64,000 nucleotides of DNA from assembly GCF_053078305.1 (NCBI RefSeq), contig NZ_CP166879.1; one strand, given 5' to 3'. Shown one piece after another: positions 18,770 through 19,092 of this stretch; position 1 is the first letter of the stretch; each line of letters opens with the position of its first letter. The translations under genes were made by a program, and so were the position numbers. A model generated the notes under the pieces. It had not been told where the DNA came from. It was given only the letters and a program-made list of their open reading frames with translations, and did not search any database.

Positions 18770-19092
18770 TGCGTCAGGCAAGGCTGTTATTGCCGGATGC
18801 GGCGTGAACGCCTTATCCGACCTACACAGCACTGAACTCGTAGGCCTGATAAGACGCGCAAGCGTCGCATCAGGCAATGCTGTTATTGTCGGATGCGGCA
18901 TGAACGCCTTATCCGACCTACACAGCACCGAACTCGTAGGCCTGATAAGACGCGGCAGCGTCGCATCAGGCAATGCTGTTATTGTCGGATGCGGCGTGAG
19001 CGCCTTATCCGACCTACACACAGCACTGAACTCGTAGGCCTGATAAGACACAACAGCGTCGCATCAGGCGCTGCGGTGTATACCTGATGCGT
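18770..19092. repeat. BIME/REP cluster: three tandem copies of a roughly 100-bp unit of paired REP palindromes
   Basis: gccggatgcggcgtgaacgccttatccgacctac...gcctgataagacgcg...gcgtcgcatcaggc repeated three times. Confidence 0.85.

Follow-up and report, generated by a model that had tools for sequence, protein, structure and literature searches.

A BIME-2 array of variable unit number between pepA and holC in an O157:H7-like Escherichia coli

The pepA-holC spacer and its flanking genes

The repeats described here lie between pepA and holC in a window of 64,000 nucleotides, by which we mean the whole stretch of DNA analyzed (contig NZ_CP166879.1 of assembly GCF_053078305.1). Upstream, pepA (leucyl aminopeptidase; 17257 to 18768, plus strand) was identified by a match to NCBIfam NF002072 (1093 bits) and ends in a TAA stop codon at 18766 to 18768; downstream, holC (the chi subunit of DNA polymerase III; 19122 to 19565, plus strand) matched NCBIfam NF004345 (338.7 bits) and is followed by valS. 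These matches, together with the RefSeq annotation of matching E. coli genomes, confirmed the position between the two genes that had been proposed from the letters of the sequence. The spacer is 353 bp long (18769 to 19121) and holds the whole array, whose first complete REP stem begins 23 nt past the pepA stop codon. Its holC-proximal end is a nonrepeat segment, ATTTAAATCCACCACAAGAAGCCCCATAT (19093 to 19121, plus strand), which spacer comparison marked as the right boundary of the variable region. All E. coli alleles have this segment, and slightly altered versions of it stand in most of the spacers inspected from other genera, although not in Salmonella enterica arizonae (L024), where it was missing, or in Superficieibacter (L018), where the sequence was largely different.

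No coding sequence is annotated within the spacer in the RefSeq records of the genomes examined. Three open reading frames run across the array (99 codons on the minus strand, 18752 to 19051; 77 and 64 codons on the plus strand) and were rejected as genes, since the repeat units of which they consist have been deleted from other alleles and RefSeq has no coding sequence in their place. At the far end of holC, the stop codon overlaps the valS start codon in the sequence TAATG (19563 to 19567), which suggests that the chi subunit gene and valS may be translationally coupled. On the other side of pepA, where pepA and lptF diverge, the K-12 reference has annotations for two very small proteins, YtgB (18 aa) and YtgA (16 aa), in the intervening spacer (L006, 3044 to 3156); the counterpart spacer in the window lies at about 16991 to 17256. 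Within pepA, the Yersinia antisense small RNA family Ysr276 of Rfam matched at 17815 to 18009 on the minus strand (174.7 bits), antisense to the coding sequence, a match that may reflect only the conservation of pepA itself. Other Rfam matches in the window at or above the gathering score were a magnesium riboswitch (35839 to 35954, minus strand; 125.8 bits), a tRNA (6721 to 6802, minus strand), ES036/CssrF (61972 to 62014, plus strand), and STnc450 (62094 to 62151, plus strand).

Anatomy of the array

Tandem Repeats Finder reported a single array at 18774 to 19069 with a period of 96, 3.1 copies, 93% matches, and a score of 504. Dissection resolved it into three tandem units of 96, 96, and 98 bp with pairwise identities of 90.8 to 93.8%, and with its edges included the periodic region amounts to ~3.3 units. 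Each unit pairs one Y REP on the plus strand with one inverted Z2 REP on the minus strand, and the two types alternate. The original prediction had read this stretch as three near-identical units with paired REP palindromes at 18770 to 19092, and both the repeat count and the three Y and three Z2 REPs found by pattern match bear it out; the limits it gave are accurate as well, the array edges being truncated copies at 18769 to 18791 and 19070 to 19092. All six REPs carry GTAG/CTAC at the foot of the palindrome, either ending in CCTAC or starting with GTAGG. The Y REPs deviated from their search pattern by 1 to 3 mismatches and the Z2 REPs by 0 to 2, and 100 shuffles of the whole window that preserved dinucleotide composition gave no match to either pattern. 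When compared with reference Y, Z2, and Z1 sequences taken from Durrant et al. 2024 (PMC11208160), the Y copies agreed at 31 to 33 of 35 positions and the Z2 copies at 34 to 36 of 37. Agreement of the array REPs with the Z1 reference was 25 to 29 of 36 to 37 positions (28 to 29 of 37 for the non-Y REPs).

From the pepA side, the array opens with its 5′ edge (18769 to 18791), a truncated Z2 arm, GCGTCAGGC, followed by a copy of the head-to-head linker, AAGGCTGTTATT; 20 of its 23 positions agree with an internal Z2 end plus linker, and the same position in other Escherichia species reads GCATCAGGC, which is nearer to Z2. The first unit consists of Y REP copy 1, GCCGGATGCGGCGTGAACGCCTTATCCGACCTAC (18792 to 18825, plus strand; 1 mismatch, 33/35 to the reference, predicted hairpin of −15.3 kcal/mol), a 14-nt tail-to-tail linker, ACAGCACTGAACTC (18826 to 18839), and Z2 REP copy 1 (18840 to 18875, minus strand; 1 mismatch, 36/37, −21.9 kcal/mol). 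A 12-nt head-to-head linker, AATGCTGTTATT (18876 to 18887), which is unlike the linker of the Rfam naRNA4 consensus, leads to the second unit, made up of Y REP copy 2 (18888 to 18921, plus strand; 3 mismatches, 31/35, −17.4 kcal/mol), the 14-nt tail-to-tail linker ACAGCACCGAACTC (18922 to 18935), and Z2 REP copy 2 (18936 to 18971, minus strand; 0 mismatches, 36/37, −21.9 kcal/mol). The next head-to-head linker (18972 to 18983) is identical in sequence to the first. In the third unit, Y REP copy 3 (18984 to 19017, plus strand; 3 mismatches, 31/35, −19.2 kcal/mol) is separated by a 16-nt tail-to-tail linker, ACACAGCACTGAACTC (19018 to 19033), from Z2 REP copy 3 (19034 to 19069, minus strand; 2 mismatches, 34/37, −15.9 kcal/mol), which has a divergent loop and is the copy kept in K-12 according to spacer comparison. 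The tail-to-tail linkers, which run from CCTAC to GTAGG and are the S linkers of the three units, differ from one another by one base or a 2-nt insertion. The array closes with its 3′ edge, ACCTGATGCG (19070 to 19092), a degenerate head-to-head linker and truncated REP arm agreeing at 15 of 24 positions with an internal linker plus the start of a Y REP; its repeat character is clearer in E. whittamii and in E. coli SCPM-O-B-8794. This edge can pair with the 3′ arm of Z2 copy 3, and the folded stretch from 19058 to 19095 is predicted to form an alternative hairpin of −17.1 kcal/mol.

The Y copies also differ in a stem position. Copies 2 and 3 read GTCGG...CCGAC where the consensus reads GCCGG...CCGGC, a two-sided change that keeps the pairing, while copy 1 is a one-sided intermediate with a C·A mismatch and has the weakest hairpin. 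Elsewhere in the window, a Y-Z2 pair lies at 42904 to 42987, regions of the REP family at 42864 to 42987, 46163 to 46243, and 52403 to 52484, a single Y-like copy at 32956 to 32989, and a single Z2-like copy at 14668 to 14703.

Assignment to BIME-2

In the published classification of Ton-Hoang et al. 2012 (PMC3333891), BIME-2 elements combine Z2 and Y REPs across a short linker (S) and occur as multiple tandem copies whose unit number varies among strains, while BIME-1 elements combine Z1 and Y, occur singly, and have a long linker (L) that often bears a site for IHF; gyrase cleavage goes with BIME-2, and the IHF site belongs to the L linker of BIME-1. The pepA-holC array has every sequence-level feature of the former: Y and Z2 REPs, inverse REPs that alternate across a tail-to-tail linker of the expected shortness and orientation, GTAG at the foot of all six palindromes, tandem copies in strain-variable number (1, 2, 3, or 4 units), and an extragenic position between the pepA stop at 18768 and the holC start at 19122. 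The features specific to BIME-1 are lacking, and at the level of sequence the identity of the array as BIME-2 appears essentially settled.

Two other identities were weighed against this one. An element of the BIME-1 or RIB type (RIB/RIP), with IHF binding as its main role, would share the inverted REP pair with its Y member and the position after a gene; the original prediction stated in general terms that BIME clusters bind IHF, and BIME-1 linkers often bear such a site (PMC3333891). Yet no REP here can be called Z1, given the 25 to 29 of 36 to 37 reference positions matched, the linkers are 12 to 16 nt rather than a long conserved L, and the copies are tandem rather than single. The IHF consensus WATCAANNNNTTR matched five times in the 64-kb window and nowhere in the spacer, where it was absent even at one mismatch, and we consider a BIME-1 identity highly improbable. 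The regularly spaced short palindromes directly past a stop codon could also be read as a small CRISPR array or as a cluster of intrinsic terminators for pepA. Against a CRISPR, what lies between the palindromes is repeat sequence too, with identical head-to-head and near-identical S linkers and no unique spacers; the palindromes are of two inverted, alternating types, unlike the direct repeats of a CRISPR, and they belong to a dispersed family with members elsewhere in the window. The original prediction had likewise set the CRISPR-like periodicity aside. Against terminators, no hairpin is followed by a T run, and a scan for G+C-rich hairpins with T runs returned no site in 18600 to 19300. 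A CRISPR or terminator cluster is, in our judgment, practically out of the question.

Unit number among E. coli strains

The spectrum of alleles was surveyed with a query of 700 bp of flanking coding sequence only, in 60 complete E. coli genomes picked at regular intervals from the ranked list of 5,425 genomes that matched. The three-unit allele, as found in the window, was the commonest state (27/60 genomes; spacer of 353 to 356 bp). Two units (255 to 258 bp) were found in 11 of the 60 and one unit (159 bp) in 4, while 17 had a 133-bp spacer with a BoxC/triplex motif and no REP. In the remaining genome, the pepA and holC matches were not joined and an IS621 lay in a Z2 REP. Two of the one-unit genomes have K-12-type laboratory strain names (RR1 and XL10-Gold), while "laboratory developed" and "conjugation assay" are the descriptions given for the remaining two. 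A one-unit span was also found in a seawater isolate by a search with an array-inclusive query. In that independent search, 1,417 of the 5,425 genomes covered <80% of the query, in agreement with the 60-genome sample. Both surveys are systematic samples rather than a census and contained no allele of at least four units; a four-unit allele with a 455-bp spacer was found in E. coli SCPM-O-B-8794 (L015). The comparison of copy number across strains that the original prediction had proposed thus yielded 1 to 4 units, as it expected, and contradicts an invariant array.

In ~26 to 28% of complete E. coli genomes, the pepA-holC interval lacks a BIME and consists of a spacer of 132 to 133 bp. An example is E. 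coli UTAK-13 (L003, 770 to 901), which holds the BIME-less allele at the site of 18769 to 19121 in the window; the reverse complement of its spacer reads CCCTCTCCCTTAGGGAGAGGGTTAGGGTGAGGG, which Holder et al. 2015 (PMC4666352) tabulate as a type A BoxC/PIT/TMECO intrastrand-triplex motif. A complete copy (103 bp) of this BoxC-type element occurred in 1,401 genomes, with parts of it found again at a median of 6 sites in each genome. Like the BIME, it is a dispersed intergenic palindromic repeat, and the two exclude each other as alleles of this spacer, the BoxC type being the one found in about a quarter of E. coli genomes. However, its sequence (CCCTCTCCC..GGGAGAGGG..GGGTGAGGG) is unrelated and lacks GTAG, it is not a REP, and it is not tandem in the E. 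coli allele. Since the BIME is absent from about a quarter of E. coli and the BoxC-type element stands there, any function of the BIME must be dispensable or replaceable.

The interrupted allele belongs to E. coli CUVET20-416 (NZ_CP098870.1; L007, about 2631 to 3919), in which IS621, an IS110-family element with a bridge-RNA recombinase, occupies roughly 1.3 kb of the spacer. The insertion splits a Z2 REP between GTAG and GCCTGATAAG (ATCAGGC-CT-AC on the other strand), which is exactly the natural IS621 target ATCAGGCCTAC described by Durrant et al. 2024 (PMC11208160). This 11-mer is present in all three Z2 copies of the array (minus strand) and occurs 7 times in the whole window. Flanks that were not joined were found in 3 of the 5,425 genomes.

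The window spacer is identical to that of O157:H7 strain PV15-279 at 353 of 353 bases. Over 1.9 kb, the two sequences differ at 6 positions, all of them coding (18243, 18246, 18654, 19190, 19191, and 19663); these include the neighbors 18243/18246 and the adjacent pair 19190/19191 in holC (CAG TTG versus CAA CTG), which is synonymous by direct reading. None of the complete E. coli genomes compared over 18300 to 19600 was above 99.8% identity to the window.

K-12 has REPs at the same intergenic position, as the original prediction stated, in the form of one Y-Z2 unit in a 159-bp spacer; the NC_000913.3 record consulted for K-12 lists CDS features alone at this site, so the unit is given no REP number here. 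Locus, flanks, and REP types are shared with the window, but the K-12 allele has one unit and the window has three in 353 bp. In sequence, the K-12 Y and S equal those of window unit 1, and the K-12 Z2 equals that of window unit 3; relative to the window, K-12 lacks exactly 194 bp in register, Y1-S1 running directly into Z2 copy 3 after a crossover within the S/Z2 sequence that the units share. Other units are mosaic as well: an ST131 strain has a unit 2 with an S and Z2 of the unit 3 type, and the first Y of EC195 is a Y1/Y2 hybrid. Such mosaic units indicate that copy number probably changes through in-register recombination, and since they are the pattern expected, we infer unequal recombination, gene conversion, or slippage between the 96-bp units.

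The spacer in other species

A HolC scan with one genome per species gave 80 loci, in 77 of which pepA adjoins holC. Within Escherichia and with common flanks, E. albertii (L013) has three units and E. whittamii (L016) has two, and three other Escherichia genomes have 1, 2, and 4, the four-unit one being L015 and the others L014 and L017. The presence of BIME-2 between the same flanks in other Escherichia argues that the element is older than E. coli, and it would have reached the locus before these species diverged; a later replacement is the simplest account of the E. coli allele that has no REP.

Outside Escherichia, none of the pepA-holC spacers scanned held Y or Z2 copies. At least one GTAGG/CCTAC motif was nonetheless present in 42 of the 77 spacers scanned across all species, and the spacers inspected include genus-specific REP pairs in the same tail-to-tail arrangement in Citrobacter, Klebsiella, Leclercia, and Superficieibacter (L018), where further copies of one REP of the pair follow in tandem. 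Three BoxC-like palindromes (CCCTCTCCC...GGGAGAGGG) lie in the spacer of Pseudocitrobacter faecalis (L022), and those of S. enterica arizonae (L024) and Kosakonia pseudosacchari (L082) contain what we take to be an ERIC-like element. Judged by these spacers (L018 to L092), the pepA-holC interval appears to be a hot spot for repeats across genera of Enterobacteriaceae.

Gyrase at the K-12 counterpart

The K-12 counterpart of the array has been mapped for gyrase in vivo by Topo-seq. Table DS3 of Sutormin et al. 2018 (PMC6379681) lists an 83-bp BIME-2 at holC-pepA in K-12 W3110, with two gyrase cleavage sites under ciprofloxacin (Cfx), one under rifampicin plus ciprofloxacin (RifCfx), none under microcin B17 (Micro), and two under oxolinic acid (Oxo). 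In the same study, BIME-2 elements were enriched in gyrase cleavage sites, Y REPs were cut much more often than Z2 REPs, and the BIME-2 signal increased when rifampicin blocked transcription, an increase that marks BIME-2 as strong, transcription-independent gyrase sites (PMC6379681). By analogy with the one-unit K-12 allele, in which in vivo cleavage was mapped, a gyrase role would fit the array of the window. Of the original statement that such clusters bind gyrase and IHF, the part on gyrase thus stands, in vivo for the K-12 allele of this locus, and the part on IHF falls for a BIME-2 with no IHF consensus in its spacer. The locus is already catalogued as a BIME-2 with gyrase sites, and copy-number polymorphism of BIMEs has been published; the array is real and already known.

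RNA structure and the naRNA4 match

Read on the plus strand, the spacer is the 3′ untranslated region of pepA, for which the original prediction had suggested RNA folding as a check. Six stable hairpins were predicted, one for each REP (−15.3 to −21.9 kcal/mol), and a Y-Z2 pair could alternatively form one long hairpin of −40.7 kcal/mol. The whole spacer had a minimum free energy of −164 kcal/mol, compared with −116 ± 5 for shuffled sequences (z = −9.1). This whole-spacer fold includes long-range pairings between units and a closing helix that starts in the pepA stop codon, which were not relied on because local hairpins should form first during transcription. A strict consensus scan found no sigma-70-like site on either strand in 18600 to 19300, although weak promoters could escape such a scan, and a literature search for transcription data on pepA-holC-valS returned nothing relevant. 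At other loci, REPs have been found to attenuate transcription and to protect upstream mRNA from exoribonucleases (summarized in PMC12306157), and by analogy it is plausible that the REP hairpins stabilize pepA mRNA.

The minus strand of the array matched Rfam RF02564 (naRNA4) at 18843 to 18918 (82.2 bits) and 18939 to 19014 (77.9 bits), both exceeding the gathering threshold of 59.5. The BIME-2 between yjdM and yjdN is REP325, of which naRNA4 forms a single unit; according to Qian et al. 2015, an RNA must have both a Z2 and a Y hairpin to condense DNA with HU, and most REPs are transcribed. The pepA-holC array resembles REP325 in its tandem Y-Z2 units and its above-gathering matches on one strand but has another head-to-head linker and three units, whereas REP325 is a cluster of six repeats. 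HU binding and DNA condensation are described for REP325 RNA; the array studied here is matched by the sequence model, antisense to its flanking genes.

Interpretation of the array

Taken together, the array is very probably a BIME-2 of alternating Y and Z2 REPs, with three complete tandem units and truncated edges, that fills the interval between pepA and holC in an O157:H7-like E. coli. Elements of the REP/BIME kind were recognized some 40 years ago. The array would be a member of the REP family that is spread over the genome and is connected in the literature with the REP-associated tyrosine transposase, and would have been at the locus before the Escherichia species diverged. Its unit number would since have shifted by in-register homologous recombination or replication slippage between the 96-bp units. 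At the DNA level, the three-unit allele may offer three preferred Y-REP targets for gyrase, compared with one in K-12. At the RNA level, if other REPs are a guide, six hairpins in the pepA 3′ untranslated region could slow 3′-to-5′ exonucleolytic decay of pepA mRNA and could attenuate read-through into holC-valS.

Two alternatives concern what the units do rather than what they are. The units might be genes for naRNA4-like, nucleoid-associated noncoding RNAs that act with HU, as reported for REP325, a reading that would account for the scores of 82.2 and 77.9 bits and for the two-hairpin architecture that condensation needs. In the RF02564 alignment, however, only the REP hairpins match and the linker differs, and the model also scored above threshold on other REP pairs of the window (42864 to 42934, 46163 to 46240, and 52403 to 52481), which argues that it recognizes any Y-Z2 pair. 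Moreover, the strand that scores above threshold runs antisense to pepA and holC, no promoter-like site was found on either strand, and the sense strand stayed below threshold (55.7 and 51.9 bits). We regard naRNA4-like genes as unlikely here; the RF02564 match restates the Y-Z2 pair and is not evidence for a nucleoid-associated RNA gene at pepA-holC. A more serious alternative is that the array is selfish and neutral, serves no function under selection between pepA and holC, and arose by REP proliferation into a permissive spacer and subsequent slippage. The free variation from 1 to 4 units, the unrelated BoxC-type element in ~26 to 28% of E. coli genomes, the roughly 1.3-kb IS621 tolerated by one genome, and the different repeats at the same site in other genera all point in this direction. 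On the other hand, the K-12 allele is cleaved by gyrase in vivo (PMC6379681), and the spacers of most genera sampled hold a structured repeat (with GTAGG/CCTAC in 42 of 77), which could mean selection or mere tolerance. Neutrality is quite possible, though we do not hold it to be probable.

With the BIME-2 assignment retained, a broader reading can be placed on the mutually exclusive repeats (BIME-2 in Escherichia, REP pairs in other genera, ERIC-like elements, and BoxC/triplex motifs) that the Enterobacteriaceae spacer holds. It might be a conserved landing pad or a selected site for a structured insulator, at which, within E. coli, the number of BIME-2 units (1 to 4) could act as a heritable rheostat for local gyrase loading, pepA mRNA stability, and read-through into the essential holC-valS genes; we offer this as speculation with a low chance of being right. 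As a discovery, the array matters little, and the practical gains are a correction of subtype, a quantified allele spectrum, and a caution for annotation. The caution is that the Rfam naRNA4 model fires on ordinary Y-Z2 REP pairs. The correction is that, for a BIME-2, the association with gyrase applies and that with IHF does not. The allele spectrum, comprising 1 to 4 units, replacement by BoxC, and insertion of IS621, could be used as a marker for typing or offers a natural series in which to look for dose effects of REP hairpins.
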